Position numbers and translations under genes: made by a program. The notes under the pieces are model-generated. The model saw only the letters and a program-made list of their open reading frames with translations, had not been told where the DNA came from and made no database searches. Shown here one piece after another: positions 1,425 to 21,972 of a DNA stretch of 64,000 nucleotides (position 1 is its first letter; each line of letters opens with the position of its first letter). The DNA is from Minutocellus sp. GHC0000111 (taxonomy: Eukaryota), in NCBI GenBank assembly GCA_977018835.1, contig OZ361256.1, positions 3,906,001 to 3,970,000 on the forward strand, read 5' to 3'.

Positions 1425-4400
1425 TCATTTGTTCGCATCGGCAGGGCTATCAATCCCTTCAACGCATTTTTCCCGAAGCAAATCCAGATGCAATTCCAAC
1501 CCCGTTCGCATGAGGCTGGCCACGGAAACAAAGTTTGGAAGATCATCGGAACCAATCTTTGTCCCGTTAATTGCAACGATGACGTCGCCCGGTTCCAGCC
1601 CGTGACAGTATTTGGTATTCGATCTGCCTCCTACCACTTCCAGAGTCAATGGCCGAGTAGCCGGAGAAGGAGGTGATAATGAAGGCGACAATGATGCAGC
1701 CGCTGCTCCAGAAGATTCGACGCTATGATCTACCACGGATAGTTGCAAATTCCATGGGATTGTCGTGCCCGCCCTCTTGGCCGTTGTGGTTGTTTGGAAC
1801 CACTTACCAAACCTTTTGGGGTCAGCATGATGGGGATCCACGGTAAGTCTCTCAGTGAGCACCCTTTCGTAAAGTGAGACGGATTGTCCGCCATCCATAT
1901 TGTTGGTCTTGCCCTGACTATCTTCAGTATTGGAAGATTTTCCATTCTCACCGCTCTCTTCAGAGTCTCTTGCGGCATGGAAGATGTATTCGTTTGATGG
2001 TTTGTAGTTCCGCTTCCGTGGCGATCTGTGTGATGATGAGGTGCTATTGCCAACAGTTCCAGCACCCTTGCAAAAGAGATCATGCTGTAAAAAGGCAGGG
2101 AGTTTGGTCGGAGTAGAAGGCTTGCTTCCGTTGGTACTCGCACCATCTTTGCCGATGCTATTCCCATTTGTTTCTGCGTCAGGAAGCTGCTTCTTTGTAT
2201 CGGTCGGATCGTGATCGTTAGAGGACTTCTCCAGGATATTGATTGGCCCGAACCCATTCGAATCAGTCAGATCTGAATGTCGGTCACATACAAAACCTCG
2301 CTTTCGACTGTCAAATGTCCAATCGGTCACGTCTTCAGCACACATGAGATGATAGAAACGAGGGCAGTTTTCACGTGAACATTGAATTGTGGCTCCCGAG
2401 CCTTCACACTCGGCACACTGCTTAGCTGCTTCAAAGGCTTCGAACACGTTTTGATATTCTTCTTCCTCTGCGTCATCACCACCGAGACTATCCTCTTCAT
2501 CCTGGTTCATCACACCGCTATCACCGTCGTCTTCACCTACAGGGTCTTCGACGAGAGTTTTCACCACCGTGGTGTGGCGCAGACAATTCGAATGAGCCAA
2601 GATTTGCTTCGCACCCTGGCGGAACGCCAGAAGATCGCCACAGCTACTCGCCGCCCCTCCATCCTCATTTTTGCATAGCGAACAAACAATGGGCGTGTTG
2701 GGATTCTTCAGAGAATAGAATCCTTTCGATATCAGACGGAGTTTCGAAAAGTTGGGTGCATACATACGGTGCAAATCGCAGAAGAAGGCCTTTCCATCGC
2801 GATCGAAGTTCCAGCCGGTATTCTCCGCACATCGAAAGTGGTACGATAAGAGACAAGCGTCGGTCCCAAAGGTGCATCCTATCGTCGCCCCCTTTTGGCC
2901 ACACGAGAGGCACGCCAACTTTGACCCTCGAGCGCATGCGCGGGTCACATTCTTCCAGATACCCTTCTCGAGAGAAACCTCAGGACAGGTCGCGGCGCAA
3001 TTGGAATGAGCAACATTTCTCCGTCCTCCCTTCTGAAATGCCAAAAGCGCGCCCTCTCTCTTTCTATTGCCCGGCTGCAAGCATAAATTGCAGGTCAGAG
3101 CTACGTGTGGATTCTTCTGTCGATAAATGGATATCGGAATCGACATGTCTTCAGCTTGATTGGTCTTGGCAGCGTTTGGCTTTGTGTACTTCAAAACATC
3201 CGCCGCAGCTCGAAGGCCGGAGAGATATGCACCGTGGGCCATCGACGGATGAAGGCTGGTAGTGTGCTCCCCACAAAAAAAGAGACGCATTGTCTCCGAT
3301 TTGTTTACCATGAATGCTTCTCCCTTGGAATTACACGGAGCCTGAAGAAGGAAGTAGTCCTGATCAGAAGTCCCTGGAGGAAGAAATGTGTAGCACCCCC
3401 TCGAAAACTGATCGCCACCCCATCGTGTAATTCGAACACTCGTCGGCGTCGGAACATCCATATCTGAATATAATATCTTCAGCGTAGACATTATGTCATC
3501 GGTAAGCGCTGCATCAGACATTCTCTCAGCCATCACGGCCTCGGAGCCAGAGATCAAGGTCATTAGGATCGCCGGTGGCTCTACATCATCTCGGTTGAGG
3601 GTTCTTCCTACATCAAGAAACATGTAGTGCTGTGCGTTGTGACCCGATGCATTGCCAAAGATTTCACTCCCCTTGCCCAGAAATGGAGTCCCCTCGAGGG
3701 ATGCTCTATCACCCGGCTGACGCCAAAAGGAGGTAGGAAATTGTAGATAAACCTTGTTCAGCAATCCAAAGCCAACATTCTTGATGGAATCTCTCTTGGA
3801 GAACGGCAGCGGTGGTTCGAACGTTAGCCTATCACATGCTTTTGCCGATGGGTCGGACAAAGAGGGATTGGCTGTAGTAGCGGGGGTAGATTTGGATGCC
3901 ACGCTATCCACACTGTCCTTGAGCACTCCAAGAGGAACTGCACAAACCGCAAAGTCGAAGTTGTGACTGGATTTACCATCCATGGAAGTGGCACTGCATG
4001 CGTCCGATAAATCAATACGGGTGGTAGACTTAGAAAACGACGCTTCTGTATCTTGATAGGGGTGAGAGGTACTATTCCGTGCAAATTCCAACTTGCCAAC
4101 TGGAAAGTCCCGAACGATCTTGAAGGCGTCACCATATGCCTCGCATTTCTGAAGTAGATGATCAATGAGTGACGAATACCCCTGCTTGATGTAGACATGA
4201 TCCCCTTCGAACGCATGGGTCTCATCACTATCCCAGAACATCATGCTGAGATCTTTTATGTCCGCTCCAAGCGCATATTGCGCATTCTCACAATACCAAC
4301 GAAGGAGTGAATGCTCTTGCATTGAAAGATATTCGAATTCCTCCCTCCCTCTCATGGCAGCTCCGATAGCATTATCGATGGTAATATCCGTAGACGTTCG

Positions 4401-5942
4401 ATGAGAAGGAGGCGAAGTCCTCGGGGGATCAGACTGCTCGCTGCCAGTATCCTTCCCGAGGACAGAGCCGTACCAGCGACATACTTTTTGAGCGGCCTTT
4501 GATCTAACAACGCTGGCACTCTCCTCTCGCTTCCAACACTCAGCAGCACCCTTATCTAGCAAAGAATCAAACAGATCGCCCATCTTATCATCAACAGACC
4601 GATCAATCTCCTTCATACCAGCCCCAAGCATCTTGACATCCTCAATGCTTGTGATCAGATCGACGTTTGCTTCTCTTGAAAGCGCTGTGAGCGGATTGTC
4701 CGTCACGCCGTGGATCCACGAAGCTCCCATGTCAACGGCGACCGGAGACCCATCCGATTTCTGGAAGGAATCGGGATCAGTAAGCAAACGCCCACCGATG
4801 CGATCCCGGGCTTCGAGAAGAATAACTTCCATGTTGAGTCCTTCCGACTTGGACAGACGGAGTAATTCATGAGCACATGCTAAGCCAGCGATACCGCCTC
4901 CAATGACTCCAACGCGGAAGCACGTCCGTTGATCCATCGGTAGTAAGGCTTCTACAGACGCAGCCGATGTCGCTGAGATTCCGCCACCCTTCTTATCAGG
5001 CTTGATATTAAGCATGTTCATGATTTGGCTTTGTCCACACTCTAGATTGGCAAGTGGGTACCATGGAGGAAGAGAAGTATTCCGAAGGAATGCATCCATG
5101 CCCATTGAAAGGCGATAGCTTCTTGTTCCGTGAGATTTGCCCATGGTAACGCCATCCATGATTCCACGAGAATCCTCAAAATGGTAGTAATATTTGCCAA
5201 CCCAGCCTCCTCCAGAACGACACGCATCCTGAATCAGCAGTGCCTTTTCCCTGTCATCCTCTGAAGCAGCCGATATGGATGCGTATGTTGCGACAAGTTC
5301 TCGGTATGGCTGGCCGTTGGTGTTGTCGGCAAAAGACCCCTTTGGCTCTATCAGCCGAAGCTTCTCGACCGGTTTATTATCATCCTCCAACACAATGTTT
5401 TCCGAAGAATTCTTCCCACCATCACTGATATCAGTTCTTTGTCTCTTTGCATTAGGTTCTTGTGCTTCGGTGACGGTATTATCATCAGCATCGTCTTCAG
5501 ATGTTGTGTCCTGAGTTCTAACAGATGCCAAGGACTTCATTCGATTGTTCAATTCAAGCGAGTTGGCCTCGTTGGTGAAATGCTGTTTAGTTGCCGCTTT
5601 CAGCGCTTCTTGATCGAAGAGGACGCCGTAATACCTTCGATTATGAATCAAAGCCGATACGTAACAACCATCTCCTGAAGCTGCAGCTGCCCCACCACTT
5701 GATGCCGATGCGCCACCACTATTATTACTATTATTCGATGTGGACTTACTATCACCATGTTCTGGGAGGTGTAAAGAAAATATATCTTCACAGGTCACAT
5801 CGTCTATGGACGTATTCTTTCGTGGTTTGCCACGTCTACCCCGTTTCCGGGTTGACCTGCCACCATTATCACCCTGTTCAGTTATAGAATGGGGCAAGAA
5901 AGGCGTATTGGGTGGGCAATCGCCGCCGCGGTAACAGTTCAT
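1425..5942 (-). CDS. Flavin amine oxidase (LSD1/KDM1-like) with two extended PHD (zf-HC5HC2H-type) domains and a C-terminal PDZ-like domain
   Basis: GVIGGGIAGLACA...LEARDRIGGR, DMGASWIHG, TRWGGDQFSRGCY and FCGEHT...AHGAYLSGLRAA match amine oxidases. CLSCGQKGATIGC...YHFRCA and CAECEGSGATIQC...YHLMCA match ePHD. GLEPGDVIVAING matches PDZ. Uninterrupted 1505-aa ORF. Confidence 0.85.
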   Translation of the reverse strand: MNCYRGGDCPPNTPFLPHSITEQGDNGGRSTRKRGRRGKPRKNTSIDDVTCEDIFSLHLPEHGDSKSTSNNSNNSGGASASSGGAAAASGDGCYVSALIHNRRYYGVLFDQEALKAATKQHFTNEANSLELNNRMKSLASVRTQDTTSEDDADDNTVTEAQEPNAKRQRTDISDGGKNSSENIVLEDDNKPVEKLRLIEPKGSFADNTNGQPYRELVATYASISAASEDDREKALLIQDACRSGGGWVGKYYYHFEDSRGIMDGVTMGKSHGTRSYRLSMGMDAFLRNTSLPPWYPLANLECGQSQIMNMLNIKPDKKGGGISATSAASVEALLPMDQRTCFRVGVIGGGIAGLACAHELLRLSKSEGLNMEVILLEARDRIGGRLLTDPDSFQKSDGSPVAVDMGASWIHGVTDNPLTALSREANVDLITSIEDVKMLGAGMKEIDRSVDDKMGDLFDSLLDKGAAECWKREESASVVRSKAAQKVCRWYGSVLGKDTGSEQSDPPRTSPPSHRTSTDITIDNAIGAAMRGREEFEYLSMQEHSLLRWYCENAQYALGADIKDLSMMFWDSDETHAFEGDHVYIKQGYSSLIDHLLQKCEAYGDAFKIVRDFPVGKLEFARNSTSHPYQDTEASFSKSTTRIDLSDACSATSMDGKSSHNFDFAVCAVPLGVLKDSVDSVASKSTPATTANPSLSDPSAKACDRLTFEPPLPFSKRDSIKNVGFGLLNKVYLQFPTSFWRQPGDRASLEGTPFLGKGSEIFGNASGHNAQHYMFLDVGRTLNRDDVEPPAILMTLISGSEAVMAERMSDAALTDDIMSTLKILYSDMDVPTPTSVRITRWGGDQFSRGCYTFLPPGTSDQDYFLLQAPCNSKGEAFMVNKSETMRLFFCGEHTTSLHPSMAHGAYLSGLRAAADVLKYTKPNAAKTNQAEDMSIPISIYRQKNPHVALTCNLCLQPGNRKREGALLAFQKGGRRNVAHSNCAATCPEVSLEKGIWKNVTRACARGSKLACLSCGQKGATIGCTFGTDACLLSYHFRCAENTGWNFDRDGKAFFCDLHRMYAPNFSKLRLISKGFYSLKNPNTPIVCSLCKNEDGGAASSCGDLLAFRQGAKQILAHSNCLRHTTVVKTLVEDPVGEDDGDSGVMNQDEEDSLGGDDAEEEEYQNVFEAFEAAKQCAECEGSGATIQCSRENCPRFYHLMCAEDVTDWTFDSRKRGFVCDRHSDLTDSNGFGPINILEKSSNDHDPTDTKKQLPDAETNGNSIGKDGASTNGSKPSTPTKLPAFLQHDLFCKGAGTVGNSTSSSHRSPRKRNYKPSNEYIFHAARDSEESGENGKSSNTEDSQGKTNNMDGGQSVSLYERVLTERLTVDPHHADPKRFGKWFQTTTTAKRAGTTIPWNLQLSVVDHSVESSGAAAASLSPSLSPPSPATRPLTLEVVGGRSNTKYCHGLEPGDVIVAINGTKIGSDDLPNFVSVASLMRTGLELHLDLLREKCVEGIDSPADANK

Positions 5943-6342
5943 AACAAATGGTAAGAAGAAGGCACATAATACTCAATACTCAATAAAAACGGACCATCGC
6001 GACCGCACAAATCTTTTACGATAATATCACCGATTCGACATAAACCGGTCTGAAGCGATTAAACCAAAAAACATATGAGGTGAACGAACAATTCATTCAA
6101 TTTACTTACGTCGACGGAACTCGACATGCCGCTAAAATTATTGGACTTTATGACTCAGAGAAAATCCGGTGTGCTTCGAGTACCTTAGCAGAGTAAATCA
6201 ATCAATCAGATGGCACTATAAAGACAATATGAGACCACTTTAGGGATTCTAATGGTCGTCCTAACAACACCCCGTGGGACCTTTATGCCACGGCGGCACC
6301 GACGGGGTGGAGATTGGTCCGGCGTTGCGTTGTTCGTGCGCG

Positions 6343-8945
6343 CACAGCCCCATCTCGTCTTGTTTCGCCGGTCGGATGAAGCGTTTTTCGGCAGAAGACG
6401 AACACGTCACGAAGAAACCCACCAAAACCCAATCTCGTTCGTCACCCATTCTTTGACAGTCCAACACCATGGTGGTCCGTCGGCGTTGCGCCGGCGCATA
6501 ACTATATTTTCGTACCAAATACGCATTCATTATCATGTTTGGATATAGTTGAAGCTTACTGTATCCTCAGATTGGCCTCCGCTGCGTATCAACGCCACGA
6601 ACCATCGGCCTGCTTTTCCTCCATCTGTCGGCCGTTCGTTTCTCTGGGGTGGCACCATTGCTCCGTCTTTGTGCTCGTCGTGCTCCCGTTGTGATGCCCC
6701 AGACCCTCTGGTACTTTCCCACGTTGTTGTTGATGATAAACTGCCGGGATTGCGCCGCACCCCCCGCATGACCGACTCTCGCTGATCCCGACCTATCGCA
6801 TCCCCACTCGACCTCCCGGAATTCCGACAATAATTTTGCGCCCGAGAGGAGACAGACAGTGTTGGGATAAGTTTATGCAACAATCAACCCGACAAAGGGA
6901 CTTTTTGGTCTGGGAGACAAATGGGTGAGTTAAGAAGGACGTGATGTGTTTGTTTGGGTGTACTGTTTGCTTTTTTGCTCAATTGCGACACTGTTTGTAA
7001 AAGTTGGATTGTGCAATTCATTTGTCATTGTGTAGCAGCAGTGTAATTTCATTTTCTAATTTTATACATGCCCTGCTCCCATCTCTACATCCTCATCTCC
7101 ATCGGTGGCCATCATGATCATTTGTTGGCGCTTGTCATCAGTTTCTGCTTTAACAGCTTCGGTCCTTGTCCTTTTCCTTGTTCTTGCCACCCGAGAGTTT
7201 CGCTCCCGCCTCTCCTCGACCTTTGGATTGGATGCCCTCTCCTCAGCCTTGAACTGCGCCGTCTGTTGGGCCTCATGTCCCTTGACGCCCTGAGTCCGAC
7301 GATCTTCCTTAACGCCCTCTTGGTGGGCTCGCTCTACAAACGATTCGTCGAGCCAATAGATGCCGCCCCATCCATTCTTCACTAGCCAAATGTGTTGGTC
7401 CAAGATGTGATCTTCGAGTAAGTGCCACTTGGGCGTTGTGCTAATGCCGATTGCCCGTGCTTGCTTGAGGGCACTTGCAATCAATGCTTCAAGCTCTTTC
7501 ACAGCCTTCTTTGCCTCATCATCCCATTTCATGTGCCATTTCAGAAACCTGGAATATGTTGCGTCAAGAGTGTGGAGCAAATTAGAGCAAGCTTTGCAGA
7601 GCTCTTTGATGTCGTCATCCGTCATGCCATCTTCCTCGCGATTGTGCTCTGTAGGAGAGTTCCTTTGGTGGAGGTGTTGTGGTGGCTGAACTCTGTTGTC
7701 CTTGGTTTCTTCTTGTTGTTGCCATCAGAAACATTAATAGATAAAAAGCTCTCCAGCATTCTGCCAGCACTGCCCTTATTTTACCTGAGTCGGCCGCCTC
7801 AATGCCGGCCTTTTTCAGGAAATGGAAGTGAGGGGCATCGTCATCCTCGGCATCATCGACAGCTCCCATCTCTGGCTCGCCATCACCGTGCTTCTGACGA
7901 TTCTTCTCAAAGTGCCACTGCTGCATGTGTGCTTCATGTGTAGCGTCCTCTCTTGCAATATCAGCTTCGTCCTCATAACAGGGCACATAGTCCTCGTCTT
8001 CGTCGTCATCGTCCTCACTGATCTCGCCGGCCTCCGTCGTGGTCAGGGTGCCCACCGTCCCAACATCGTCGTCATTGTCCCACCCATCGTCCTGGCCATT
8101 GCACCCACCAAGGAACTTCTGGGCCTCGAGCAACATCTGCCTGTTGATTTCGTAGTCCATCGCCGCATGTCCCACCGATATATGTGGTGCGACCGACTTG
8201 AGGAATGCATTGCATGCCTTCGTCAAATTGAGCCGCGGCGGCGGCATTTCGAGGCGAAATTGTTGCTCGACCGTGACCATGTCGAAAGCCATCCATCCAT
8301 CATCATGGAGAGCGTCGGCTGCACGAGGATTGATAGAACCGAGGCGAACAAATATGCTCCTTTTGTATGGGGTTCGCTGAACGTCGTCGGCAAGGCAGTG
8401 TCTTGATGCCATTTCATCCCATCCATTCTGGTTGTCTGTCCTCACAAAAAAAACACATCGCAGTCTTCGTGTTTCTTCTTCTTCAAACCCAAGATGCCCA
8501 CAGTGTACATGACGGCGCCGTACATGATGGGACTGCATCCCAACACATTCATCAAGGAGTCGTTGTTGCCGATGAAATTGTAGTAATGAAGTTCCTTTCT
8601 GCGAAGACGGACGAGTAGTTCAGCCAGGGCGTCCTGCACCGCAATTCTGTCTGCGGTGTTGACCGCGGGATTGCGGCAGTTATTTTTTTTGCTCATGGAG
8701 AATTATGGATCGAGACCAACGGGAATATCACCAGGATGTCGGGAGTACCTGGTTGGTCTCGTGCCGTAATTCTCCCACACCAGCGCGAGATATCGCCTTC
8801 GTTCTGCACGTAGCGGCGGCAATTTGAATTTTTGCCGCCATGGTGGCTCGCGTTGGGCGCGCCGGTCGGTTGCTTCGCGCGCCGGCCGGCCACCGAAAGT
8901 GCGACCAAAAGTATGCGAGTCATCCGGCTGGCAGATGGTGCTGTG
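6343..8945 (-). mobile_element. Decayed cut-and-paste DNA transposon of the Chapaev/Transib/RAG-like group, with asymmetric terminal inverted repeats
   Basis: Left end CACAGCCCCATCT-cgtcttgtttc-GCCGGTCGGATGA (6343-6379). Right end read inward CACAGCACCATCT-GCCAGCCGGATGA (8945-8920). CGCG on both flanks (6339-6342, 8946-8949). Internal ORF has TPKWHLLEDH...DESFVERAHQ. Confidence 0.7.
7062..8696 (-). pseudogene. Fragmented transposase-derived gene: N-terminal part (8696 down, frameshift at A8 run 8446-8453), acidic linker, probable intron 7784-7649, and a C-terminal H-x4-H / E-x3-E-x2-HQ segment
   Basis: A GT..CAG intron joins ...EAADS to EHNREEDGMTDDDIKELCK in frame. TPKWHLLEDH and LDESFVERAHQEG resemble the terminal catalytic-Glu region of Chapaev/Transib/RAG1 transposases. 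No clear first two catalytic Asp segments seen. Confidence 0.6.
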
Positions 8946-9143
8946 CGCGTTGTCGAGTTGAGTTCGTCTGTCCGTCCCCATGCACAAACAAAGAGTGAGG
9001 AAGTGAGGCAGAAGAGCCGGAAGAGAGGAACTGACTGCAGAACAAAAACAAAGCACCTGGTATTTTTTGAAGCAGCGATCGACCCCGTTTGATGTACATG
9101 TAGGCCTACTGTTGATGTTGGTGATCAGTCGGCCAATGGATCA

Positions 9144-10592
9144 ATGACCATCATAACTCGAGCCTTGGAAGATGCTGCCGATGCATCTTCTGGCGACTAC
9201 CAACCGGCATCTGTGGCGTTCCTTTCCGCAGGTGCCATCTGGGTCGTCATTGTTGTTTGCTTCATAGTCCTTGTTCTGCTGCAGTACAAGAGAGAACGGG
9301 AATATCTCATTGCTTCCGGTCGTGGCCAAGATGTTGACTGGACGGCTTCACTCACTCGATCCATACTGGTCAGTTCGGACAACGTGGCCAAGTCCGATGC
9401 CGACATCAACGTCCGCAAGTCTTCCATGCTCGATGCCAGATATAACTTTCAGACCATATTTCTTGCGCTGGTCCAGGCCTCCATATCGATGGCAATATTG
9501 GGAGGAATACAGTTAAACTTTGGCGCAACGATTCGAATAGTGGTTTATGCCGTGTTGGCATGGACGCTACTGATCGGAGTCATCGCAACACTTTGGATGT
9601 CTTACGTTTCCGAGACCATTGGCGAGAATGCCTTCGCATTCGATGACATCAATGACAATGCTACTGGTAGTAATAGTCGACGCCAAAAACTCTCCAGACA
9701 ACGCGCCAGTAATCCAACAGATACTGTACTCCACAACCTAAAAGATGAGCTGCACGGAAACCCATTACTATTTGCCAAGCATTTCGTCGAAATGAGCTTT
9801 TTCAAGCCTTTGATTAGCACATCTCAGCTTGTTGCCGGTGATATATATCAGGACATCGGAAGGGACGGAAGCCGAACGCTGCTCCTGGGACTTGGGCAGA
9901 TGATACTCCTTTCCATGTATGCGTTCAATGTCGTTGACGATGGGAAGCCCGACCTGAGCAGTCAGAGACTCTACACTTTCTACTGTTGCGGTATTTTAAT
10001 GCAGATTGCCTACATGTCGGGACAAGATGTGTTATTGAAGAGCATCCACTCTCACTTTTCATTCTGGGGAAATGCACTGCGTGCAGCGCGAATGAATAAT
10101 TCCTATTGCTGGGAACCGCCATCATATCTAATGTATCATCGACCCCACATGGTATTGACATCCGGCAGTGTGAGAGGCTTTTCAAACGAAGCTACCATTC
10201 GGCTGTCGTCCAATTCGCTATTCCTTTGGCTCCGATTCCTTTGTTCAACAATCATCAATGTCGGTGGCCTGAATGTTATCACTCTATTGCTTCCACTGTA
10301 GTTGGCTTCCAACGATGATCCACTTAATTTCGTCATGACCAGTGTCGGAGCGTACTACATTTTGGGTATCGATGACTATGGAGAGCCGATCCGTTACAAT
10401 TTGGTCATGCAAAATGATGTGCCTGTCGCTAAGAACATGACAAGCCATAGATCTGAGGATGGTGGGCTTTTCCCGGAGAGAGTGGAAATGACCAGCATTG
10501 AAAAACAACAGCAGCGGCAAGGAGCAGAAGCCTTCATCAATGATGGAAGGGCGGCCCATGCACATGCGACGGATTATCGACACATGACGTGA
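9144..10592 (+). pseudogene. Multi-pass membrane protein of unknown function interrupted by an in-frame TAG at 10299-10301
   Basis: Several hydrophobic helices. The frame continues directly across the stop (VITLLLPL*LASNDDPLNFVMTSVGAYYILGIDD) into a further TM-like segment. Confidence 0.6.
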
Positions 10593-19212: not shown

Positions 19213-21972
19213 ATGCAAAATGGATCAAAGTACGTACCGCCGCACCTGAGAAATGCTCAGGGTGGAGGCGGATCTAGCTCTTCTGGCGGTGGCGGCGGAG
19301 GAGGACGGGCCGGTTACGGCGGCGGCTCTCGCGGTGGCTCGTATGGCGGCGGCGGAGACCGTGGCAGCTACCGCGGGGGCGGGGGCGACCGAGGCCCCCC
19401 TCAGCCCTCCAACTCTCGCTGGAACAACGTCGACGTAGATAGCGGCGGCGGTTACGGTGGAAGCCGTGGAGGATACGGCGGAAACTACGGTGGCCGCAGC
19501 CAAGCTCGCGTCAATGAGAGGGGCTTCCATGGCGACATGCGCCTCGACCCCCGCGTCGAGCGCCAGCTCTTCAACCGTGAGCATGAGCAGACCACTGGCA
19601 TCAACTTCGACAGGTACGACAACATTCCCGTTGAGACGTCGGGAGGTGAATGCCCCGAGCCCATCGAGGAGTACACCATCGATACCATCGGCGAGGACCT
19701 CATGAGGAACACTCAGCTCTGCGGCTACACCAAGCCCACGCCTGTCCAGAAGTATTCCATTCCCATTGGCCTTGCCGACAAGGACCTCATGGCCTGTGCC
19801 CAGACTGGTTCCGGTAAGACCGCCGGCTTCCTCTTCCCCATCATCCTCTCGATGCTTCGTCGTGGCGGCTCTCCTCCTCCCGAGAACGCCCGTGGCCGTC
19901 GTTCCTACCCCGACACCCTCGTCCTCTCCCCAACCCGTGAGCTTACGAGCCAGATCCACGAAGAGGCCAAGCGCTTCACCTACGCCACCGGCATTGCTGC
20001 CGTCGTCGTCTACGGTGGTGCCGACATCAGGGATCAGCTCCGCCAGATCGAGCGCGGTTGCGACATGCTCATCGCTACTCCCGGCCGTCTCGTCGATCTC
20101 ATCGAGCGTGGTCGCGTTTCCATGGAGGCCATCAAGTTCCTCGTCCTCGATGAGGCTGATCGCATGTTGGACATGGGCTTCGAGCCTCAGATCCGTCGCA
20201 TCGTCGAGCAGGAGGGCATGCCCTTTGGCGACGATCGTCAGACGATGATGTTCTCGGCGACCTTCCCCGCCAACATCCAGCGTCTCGCCGGTGACTTCAT
20301 GCGTGAGTACATCTTCCTCACCGTCGGCCGTGTCGGTTCGGCCAGCAAGGACGTTACCCAGACCGTTGAGTACGTCGAGGACCGTGACAAGCTCGAGACG
20401 CTGATGCGTTTCCTCCTCACCATTGAGGAGGGACTCATCCTCATCTTCGTCGAGACCAAGCGCTCTTGCGACTACCTCGAGGATGTTCTGTGCTCCAAGG
20501 GCTTCCCCGCCTGCTCAATTCACGGCGACAAGTCCCAGAGGGAGCGCGAGGATGCCCTCCGCAGCTTCAAGCGCGGCCACACTCCCGTCATGTGTGCCAC
20601 CGATGTTGCTAGTCGTGGTTTGGACATCCCCAACGTCACGCAGGTTGTCAACTACGACCTTCCTAGCAACATTGACGACTACGTCCACAGGATTGGCCGT
20701 ACCGGTCGTGCTGGTAACACTGGTGCCGCCCTTGCCTTCGTCAACGAGAAGAACGGCAACATCACCCGTGAACTTCGCGAGTTGCTCGAGGAGAACGACC
20801 AGGAGTGCCCCAAGTGGCTCAGCCAGATGTCTGGATTTGGCGGAGGCGGCGGAGGCCGAGGCCGTGGCGGCGGTCGCCGTGGAGGCGGCAGCTCCTTCGG
20901 TGGTCGCGATTACCGTCGTGAAGGCGGCGGAGGCGGCGGCGGCGGATATGGCGGCGGTGGGGGATATGGTGGCGGCGGATATGGTGGCGGCGGAGGATAC
21001 GGTAAGTTTTCTGCTTTCAAATCGCCTCTGCCTTGCACGCATCTTTCAAGAAATTTTGAACCCTATTTCTTTTTGTGAACGCCATTGCTCACATTCATCA
21101 ACATATATATGTTAGTCCCAAAATGCGCACTGTCCCAGTTCGCGAACTGGGATCCCAGTTTGCGAACTGAGATTCATTTATCCCAGTTTGCGCACTGGGC
21201 CCCAGTTCCCAAACTAGGATCTCAGTTTGCGCACTGATACTACCAGAATGGAAACTGAGATAAACACGCCAATCCGAATTTGGGAACCAGACGAGTTCGC
21301 GAACTGGAACAAAAATGAATACCAGTTTGGAAACTGGCATTCTCGGCAAGTGTCAGAATGGTAACTGCCGGTGTTGGCTCATGCACAATGATTATGTACT
21401 GGTAGATCTATCTACAATACAAGTTGCACTGTGCATCATATCTTGAATTTGCAAGCTACATGTACTGGTGCAGTAGCAACATGATGCCGGCATAGCACAG
21501 ATGCATGTATACAGTTCATGACTTATATTTGCCAGAAGCAGCTAGCTAGATATTATTATTTATTCACTATATGTATTTAGTATCAGCTAATGCCAATTTA
21601 TTGAGTATCAGCTCCGGCACTAATGTCGTCTGGACGTCTGGACCAGGTTTGGGCTGTGTTGCTTCACTATGAAAAAATGAAGCGAGGAGAAGCAAAGGCG
21701 ATATCATCCATGCTAAATATTCATTATTTCTCGATTGATCCCAGTTTGCAAACTGAGATTGTGCCTATGATCCCAGTTTCCAAACTGGGATAAATAAATC
21801 CTAGTTCGCAAACTGGGATCCCAGTTCGCGAACTGGGACAGTGCGCATTTTGGGACTAACATATATATATATATCGCACAATTCCCACTCTCTCTCAACA
21901 GGTGGCGGCGGAGGATACGGAGGCGGCGGCGGCGGAGGAGGAGGCCAGTGGGGTGGAGGAGGAGCTTGGTAG
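19213..21972 (+). CDS. DED1: DEAD-box RNA helicase DED1/DDX3; exons 19213-21001 and 21902-21972
   Basis: YVPPHLR N-terminus, [52 protein letters not shown] and RGG tails. Intron GTAAGT(21002)...CAG(21901) gives a G-rich tail ending GGAW*. Confidence 0.95.
21110..21861. mobile_element. 752-bp non-autonomous MITE-like element inside the last DED1 intron, inserted in a (TA)n tract
   Basis: 59-bp perfect TIR TGTTAGTCCCAAAATGCGCACTGTCCCAGTTCGCGAACTGGGATCCCAGTTTGCGAACT (21110-21168 / 21803-21861), imperfect to about 90 bp. TA repeats on both sides. No coding capacity. Confidence 0.92.

Follow-up and report, generated by a model that had tools for sequence, protein, structure and literature searches.

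The stretch analysed here, 64,000 nucleotides of Minutocellus sp. GHC0000111 (contig OZ361256.1, positions 3,906,001–3,970,000; hereafter the window, whose own numbering is used throughout), carries at positions 6343–8945 a DNA transposon of 2,603 bp with CACAG...CTGTG termini, a non-autonomous, internally deleted copy whose transposase gene lies on the minus strand, with the right end of the element as its 5′ and the left end as its 3′ side. A transposon had been predicted at 6339–8949, and the end sequences and CGCG flanks quoted for it are present where they were placed, as is the peptide TPKWHLLEDH...DESFVERAHQ, in frame at 7062–7724. The bounds, however, had to be corrected: the element is delimited by an empty allele and, at both 6343 and 8945, by a step in depth with loose ends, and the CGCG at 6339–6342 and at 8946–8949 is flank. 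No second copy was found in the window.

Read inward, the two ends form a 26-bp inverted repeat made of a 13-bp outer and a 13-bp inner block. The outer blocks, CACAGCCCCATCT at the left (6343–6355, plus strand) and CACAGCACCATCT at the right (8933–8945, minus strand), share 12 of 13 positions, and the inner blocks, GCCGGTCGGATGA (6367–6379, plus) and GCCAGCCGGATGA (8920–8932, minus), 11 of 13; DNA beyond the inner block is unrelated between the ends. Outer and inner blocks are contiguous at the right end and 11 bp apart at the left, which alone has the intervening segment (6356–6366, plus strand). The longer left end that had been claimed is real; the best inter-block gap is 11, with 11/13 matches against 7/13 for the runner-up. 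Among random pairs, at least 11/13 matches were reached in 238 of 200,000 (P = 0.0012) with one block anchored and a gap of 0–30 allowed on either side, and in 48 of 4,000 (P = 0.012) with the block allowed anywhere in the first 60 bp.

Within the inner blocks lies a perfectly shared 7-mer, CGGATGA (6373–6379 at the left, 8926–8920 at the right), whose first base is number 31 counted from the left terminus and number 20 counted from the right. Counted to this 7-mer, the ends read 7+12 and 7+23, as in the 12/23 spacing originally predicted, but the shared inner block begins 6 bp earlier, and counting to its GCC start gives 7+6/7+17 or 13+0/13+11; 12/23 is one reading among several, depending on where the inner block is taken to start. 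Both terminal heptamers match the CACAGTG of V(D)J recombination signal sequences (RSSs) at 5/7 positions, CAC included. As had been conceded from the outset, CGGATGA does not resemble the RSS nonamer: the 9-mers CGGATGAAG and CGGATGACT match it at 2/9 and 3/9 positions, and no A-rich nonamer is present with the conserved A5 and A6 that a GRPR hook reads. With the spacer invariant in sequence as well, a strict RSS-like architecture is not supported.

Far from being the lone decayed copy it was taken for, the element belongs to a high-copy, polymorphic family. Among 22 listed public sequencing runs, 20 contain part of the stretch, and contigs of four runs were compared in each analysis. Depth inside the element lay two to three orders of magnitude above the flanks, with sharp steps, in three of four runs (X1, X2 and X4; run X19 has only 10 contigs), and single left-end contigs reached depths of up to 25,000 against ~220–310 in the flank in X4 and of 1,470 against 11.7 in X8. 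We estimate from the depth ratio roughly 100 copies, summed depth not being equal to copy number. The insertion itself is polymorphic: filled left junction and empty junction occur together in X1 and X4, only the empty one in X2 and only the filled one in X8. The flanks of other insertions differ and are mostly rich in GC, and 6343 and 8945 mark the limits of the family, other copies ending there too. The flanking CGCG is therefore target DNA, and the suggestion that it might belong to the terminal inverted repeat (TIR) is ruled out.

The 11-bp-longer left end is family-wide and the same in nearly all copies. Across 585 contigs from four runs, the region 6290–6450 has no listed substitution at the 1% level and only two 1-bp indels, at 6384 and 6424, so that 6343–6383, with the 11-bp segment, has neither a listed substitution nor an indel of at least 1%. 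The contigs were identical to the window copy at ≥99% in 470 cases, at 95–99% in 98, at 90–95% in 13 and below that in 4. Because the left end is constant across them, the 11-bp insert is not private to the window copy; its length is fixed, and so is its sequence, in what appears to be a young single family. At the right end (8830–8945), compared at the 5% level, none was found among the listed variants (40 of 83 substitution and 12 of 21 indel sites). In place of the outcomes named as fatal to the original prediction (no other copies with these termini, an insert private to one copy, no match to a DDE transposase), we thus found further copies, a shared insert and, as described below, a DDE core, the right end being covered at the 5% level among listed sites. 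Separately, a single-copy derivative in run X1, in which 8559/8560 is joined to 8919 across a GAGTC microhomology, keeps only the terminal ~29 bp of the right end, with both blocks. Nine RNA runs contain 0.37–0.56 of the words of the stretch, from which we draw no claim on expression.

At this one site the flanks are identical for exactly 2 and 4 bp and not for 3, 5 or 6 bp, making CGCG a candidate duplication of the target site (TSD), 4 bp long. In the empty allele a single T separates 6337 from 8947, and the difference between filled and empty alleles equals the element plus 5 bp, while a clean 4-bp TSD model predicts an empty allele 1 bp longer than that observed. The empty allele also carries a substitution, its haplotype differs by 2–3 neighbouring single-nucleotide polymorphisms, and the insertion lies in a short tandem repeat; the length mismatch could possibly stem from an old footprint or a prior polymorphism. 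Within Transib, too, TSD length varies according to the accessible part of one report (10.64898/2026.08.26.747230).

The transposase gene of the window copy survives as four frameshifted pieces (8696–7062, minus strand), identified with tblastn by 91–97% identity per piece to full-length sister proteins and by indels relative to other copies. An internal deletion, with its junction at 7645–7660 (minus strand; placed by tblastn against the sister open reading frame (ORF) P0165 and by a loose end at 7650 that agrees with the undeleted form), removes P0165 residues 329–901. These 573 residues comprise a region resembling the RAG1 nonamer-binding domain (NBD), both catalytic Asp residues, the CxxC and the LH, and the copy retains only the H(4)H and the Glu of the core motifs. 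The same junction occurs in 32 of 35 informative same-family ORFs, the other 3 having the full junction (47 examined, 12 uninformative). The shared deletion is in frame, and many deleted copies (P0167, P0170, P0175, P0187) retain an ORF of ~540 residues without the catalytic core, which could act as a repressor, by analogy with the KP element, or be just a young derivative. Folding of the whole 543-residue deleted form, its N-terminal part not being modelled separately, gave no clear structural match. In the 2.6-kb deleted copy examined there is one gene, with the deletion inside it, and no RAG2-like second gene. Directly upstream of the start codon, repeat search and folding revealed a 24-bp inverted repeat (8697–8775, minus strand) with a predicted RNA hairpin, and the 5′ 256 nt of the element (8690–8945) folded with z = −4.0, only 1 of 200 shuffles being as good.

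Sister ORFs P0001, P0162 and P0165, 91–97% identical to the window pieces, have the full core of a DDE transposase of ~1,100 residues. A wide homologue search returned 609 representatives at E ≤ 0.001, and when 85 of the longer matches were aligned the motifs proved nearly invariant: the Asp residues D339 (66/69) and D438 (82/82), the C(2)C pair C455/C458 (79/80), H527 of the LH (L526–H527; 81/82), H801 (73/76) and H806 (79/79) of the H(4)H, and the Glu residues E827 (73/75) and E831 (72/73). Three of the 30 clusters looked up carried organism names, all diatom hypothetical proteins (Thalassiosira exigua, T. oceanica and Cylindrotheca closterium), which by itself would make a diatom the probable host. 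The Pfam family DUF1280 matched 4 of 33 relatives, one above cut-off, and not P0165 itself; Pfam gave nothing for the window ORFs or P0001, and no RAG1 match in 37 proteins scanned. Searches of PDB sequences with phmmer or a profile gave no match to RAG1 or HzTransib, only coiled-coil-type matches among the best 60 of 259 profile matches. A Chapa zinc finger or RING is absent, the first 350 residues of 15 of 16 long members having no CxxC and those of the sixteenth having one. No CCGHC tail was found in the 85-sequence alignment, and a GRPR hook is not conserved (a GRP or RGR string in only 4 of 45 rows, and not in one column), which fits an inner block without an A-tract. In a by-eye comparison with Fig. 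S1 of PMC4079192, the motifs, including ExxxExxH and LH, follow the Chapaev3 enzyme Garfield_BM. Scanning viral contigs, prokaryote genomes and phages for loci with the protein yielded nothing, the alignments being too diverse for the method. When metagenome and viral contigs were scanned for the pattern of the ends, 71 and 3 loci were returned with spacers of 2–22, unrelated to the element or its protein, which we set aside as chance.

The full-length enzyme is predicted to adopt the RAG1-core fold, NBD-like region included, which together with the motifs bears out the RAG1/Transib/Chapaev-type transposase of the original prediction. The model of P0001 (predicted local distance difference test, pLDDT, 86; predicted template modelling score, pTM, 0.76) found RAG1 (E 3.5e-13), BbRAGL and HzTransib as its best Foldseek matches. 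VIA-align superposed it on RAG1 6xnz with Z 22.0 (root-mean-square deviation, rmsd, 4.2 over 476 aligned residues), on HzTransib 6pqx with Z 20.8 (rmsd 3.9, 429 aligned) and on BbRAGL with Z 20.1, compared to 13.4 for the P element and ~10 for coiled-coil noise. Despite its top place in Foldseek, RAG1 could not be retained as the closest relative, as HzTransib ties with it in the best conformation. In 10 of 32 listed RAG1/RAGL rows, the alignment reaches model residues 152–174, at the start of the RAG1 NBD, with a higher rmsd of 6–9, as the mobility of such a domain would lead one to expect. Several alignments begin at model 152–163, opposite RAG1 394–413 in the NBD, and the region as a whole is aligned to RAG1 394–459. 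Conservation of this NBD-like helical region extends across the diatom family. An antiparallel coiled coil of ~120 residues (P0001 556–673), likewise present throughout the family, interrupts the zinc-binding part of the core and resembles unrelated coiled coils only. The N-terminal part of the model is alpha/beta and had no clear PDB match.

Sequence comparison further indicates that the copies are hypermutated from TpA to CpA/TpG. Exchanges between TpA and CpA/TpG account for 24 of the 37 best-supported listed variant sites against 21% expected (P = 7e-9), the remainder comprising 7 sites that involve CpG and 6 with neither. In 12 protein columns with Tyr in a 70%-identical outgroup, the copies (window plus sister ORFs P0001–P0205) have Tyr in 96 cells, His in 124, Cys in 94 and Ser in 3, so that His or Cys stands in place of the ancestral Tyr in 218 of 317; columns of other residues in which the family majority equals the outgroup, a set chosen by a different rule from the Tyr set, were kept at 96–99%. 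Because the outgroup has Tyr where the copies have His or Cys, the direction is read as TpA to CpA/TpG, opposite to that of fungal repeat-induced point mutation. The first 108 bp of the left end contain no TpA, the main dinucleotide driving divergence in the element. The process resembles one in Bigelowiella natans, whose integrated viruses carry the same TpA to CpA/TpG signature in a study whose accessible text does not mention diatoms (10.64898/2026.01.13.699255).

The insertion sits between divergent genes, a minus-strand amine-oxidase gene (LSD1-like, with PHD and PDZ matches; 1425–5972) and an unannotated plus-strand ORF (9093–10301), and may affect a shared promoter region between 5972 and 9093. 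Elsewhere in the window, a separate non-coding element at 21103–21868, unrelated to the transposon, is bounded by terminal inverted repeats of ~97 bp that are 94% identical, encloses CCCAGTT-type repeats and lies in a TA run; it is probably a miniature inverted-repeat transposable element.

Published descriptions place the enzyme most readily among the CMCT transposons. This clade (EnSpm, Mirage, Chapaev and Transib) is characterized in PMC12730594 by a C(2)C and an H(3–4)H lying between the second Asp and the Glu of the DDE triad, a pattern that we found in the sister-family alignment; the CACAG..CTGTG termini and a TSD of 2 or 4 bp by identity, or 5 bp by allele length, also match the 5′-CA..TG-3′ ends and 2–5-bp TSD of the clade. 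The hallmarks of Chapaev are C(2)C, LH, H(4)H, CAC..GTG termini and a 3–4-bp TSD (PMC4079192), and the motifs and termini are those of the element. According to PMC4079192, PMC4411706 and PMC12730594, Chapaev and Chapaev3 share with it the CAC...GTG ends and a DDE core that bears C(2)C, LH and H(4)H, and they resemble it in its candidate 4-bp flank duplication at this site, its weak matches to DUF1280 (the Chapaev transposase family in the accessible part of PMC3985635) and the excess of deleted derivatives over full copies. Unlike Chapaev, for which the available parts of PMC4411706 and 10.64898/2026.01.24.700457 describe an N-terminal Chapa zinc finger with or without a RING, the element lacks both, has the ~120-residue coiled-coil insertion in a protein of ~1,100 residues, occurs in diatom hosts, targets GC-rich DNA rather than TWA, and has bipartite ends with an 11-bp offset. 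The enzyme is thus likely, on its sequence, to represent an unnamed Chapaev-like branch in diatoms. Neither Chapaev-like elements of diatoms nor long and short Chapaev ends were the subject of any paper found, in a search that lay outside Repbase, which may already contain such diatom families.

Asymmetric ends outside animals, as raised in the original prediction, are not new, because AanRAGL of an alga, the pelagophyte Aureococcus anophagefferens, has been published (PMC9435367). That study reports asymmetric TIRs in all Transibs of Subgroup I, in several RAGL elements and in AanRAGL, the last with a 13-bp block, spacers of 4 and 13 and a 10-bp block; no diatom was found in its supplement. 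Like the element described here, AanRAGL has a stramenopile host, a 13-bp terminal block, polymorphic insertions and a second block without A-tract at unequal distance (4/13 against 0/11); unlike it, AanRAGL has RAG1L and RAG2L and makes 5-bp TSDs, whereas here a single Chapaev-like gene is present, without RAG2L. Asymmetric ends occur in five insect Transib families in the accessible part of PMC1131882, and those of Transib5, Transib2_AG and N1–N3_AG share with the element CAC ends, a short 5′ and long 3′ side and a one-turn offset, beside the RAG1-type fold; GC-rich targets and a single gene are likewise shared with Transib (PMC1131882 and, for Subgroup I, PMC9435367). The element differs from Transib in having neither a CACAATG/A-tract nonamer nor, at this site, an exact 5-bp TSD, in its much longer protein and in the lack of a detectable sequence match to RAG1 or HzTransib. 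With V(D)J RSSs and RAG1/2 it shares the predicted core fold with the NBD-like region, five of seven heptamer bases and, on one reading, a second block at 20 and 31, but it has a nonamer match of 2–3/9, no GRPR hook, no RAG2 and a spacer that is not variable. On the Chapaev side, a by-eye reading of the partial alignment printed in Fig. S6 of PMC4079192 gives offsets between the Chapaev3 Merrow termini of 10 and 9 bp in two species, with the long end 5′, and of 0 and 1 in two others. The two Merrow species without the longer 5′ end are lampreys, and the main text of that paper makes no remark on asymmetry.

We therefore consider it probable that the window holds a broken, internally deleted copy of a high-copy Chapaev-like diatom family with an enzyme predicted to have the RAG1 fold that would read its ends by blocks, the asymmetry being tolerated and inherited. 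Rare intact copies would supply full-length enzyme that binds the two ends as a dimer, cleaves at the CAC termini and inserts into GC-rich DNA, and we infer that the window copy was moved in trans, by cut-and-paste, by such a full-length sister. The catalytic core would recognize the outer 13-bp block as its cleavage site, and the inner GC-rich block would be a candidate site for the grip of the NBD-like helical domain, a role proposed by analogy with the RAG1 NBD dimer, which pivots to fit 12 and 23 spacers in the account given by the available part of PMC10629977. With an offset of 11 bp, the inner block would face the same side of the helix at both ends, and both the long and the short end could therefore fit one transposase dimer. 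Tolerance and inheritance are the most likely explanation of the asymmetry; one family does not establish an enforced pairing rule, descent from a single ancestor giving inheritance rather than selection.

Several observations weigh against parts of this interpretation. The 5-bp difference between alleles is the Transib/RAG length, with only the 2- and 4-bp duplications matching in sequence. The assignment to a branch is made from motifs, weak Pfam matches and the by-eye comparison with Garfield_BM, and the Chapa zinc finger is missing. RAG1 heads the fold list with HzTransib within ~1 Z, and we know of no solved Chapaev structure. At the left end, three single-copy contigs have 7, 12 and 13 gap letters in the first 80 bp, so rare copies without the 11-bp insert may exist; one contig lacks the base at 6355 and three diverge before 6350, and contigs lose rare variants. 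The right end was compared at the 5% rather than the 1% level, and the constancy of the left end needs no selection because its first 108 bp hold no TpA.

This last point also speaks for the most serious alternative, namely that the offset is a neutral founder indel, that only the outer block (or that block plus unrelated subterminal DNA) matters, and that the match to a helical turn and to 12/23 is coincidental. Imperfect TIRs are common; the 12/23 count shifts with the chosen start of the inner block and the nonamer match is 2/9 and 3/9; youth and the absence of TpA targets would explain the constancy; and the looser chance level is 0.012, in a setting where very many windows were scanned. 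We nevertheless regard a neutral indel as possible rather than probable, since 11/13 positions of the inner block are kept between two ends that are otherwise unrelated further inward, an inner site would be needed by an enzyme with an NBD-like domain, and offsets of about one turn recur in published relatives (PMC9435367 and PMC1131882).

Another alternative is an asymmetry that is enforced, a tilted NBD-like dimer making only a long plus a short end productive, in a 12/23-type rule without RAG2. The offset is 11 bp, the shared 7-mer starts at 20 and 31, which are the start positions of the RSS nonamer, and the NBD-like region, aligned to RAG1 394–459, is conserved across the diatom family, in which the long end is fixed; moreover, the short 5′/long 3′ polarity is shared with the asymmetric insect Transibs and with AanRAGL (5′ spacer 4), as described in PMC1131882 and PMC9435367. 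We find enforcement unlikely all the same. The pattern comes from one family with one ancestor, RAG1 alone without RAG2 reportedly shows no 12/23 preference (accessible part of PMC8355894) and no RAG2-like gene fits in the element, and Merrow offsets of 10, 9, 1 and 0 bp (PMC4079192 Fig. S6, by eye) suggest that offsets come and go. Finally, a transposon of the Transib/RAGL lineage that makes 5-bp duplications, with the flanks of the window copy altered after insertion, would account for the element-plus-5-bp allele difference, the GC-rich targets, the tied fold matches to RAG1 and HzTransib and the asymmetry typical of Subgroup I Transib, but is improbable given flanking 5-mers that match at 0/5, the absence of RAG1 Pfam (37 proteins) and PDB sequence matches, the Chapaev3-like DUF1280 matches, ExxxExxH and LH, and the lack of a CCGHC tail or GRPR.

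Thus, the family is a real, high-copy, polymorphic CMCT transposon with a long end extended by one turn, and not yet evidence of a 12/23-type rule. Were the offset neutral, it would be one more unannotated diatom CMCT family. The family bears on how and when the 12/23 rule arose: asymmetric ends are known in Transib and RAGL and were found in no paper for the remoter Chapaev side. It pairs near-intact one-gene enzymes (P0162, P0165) and a predicted NBD-like domain with matched long and short ends, which makes it a system for testing whether the NBD fold by itself reads a one-turn asymmetry. We give little credence at present to its boldest reading, in which a single-gene, Chapaev-side transposase with a RAG1-NBD-like dimer requires one long and one short end differing by a helical turn, through a GC-rich inner signal and with neither GRPR hook nor RAG2. 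If true, however, one-turn discrimination between ends would predate the separation of Chapaev from Transib, or the same domain would have given rise to it twice, and a system of one protein would be available for its dissection.

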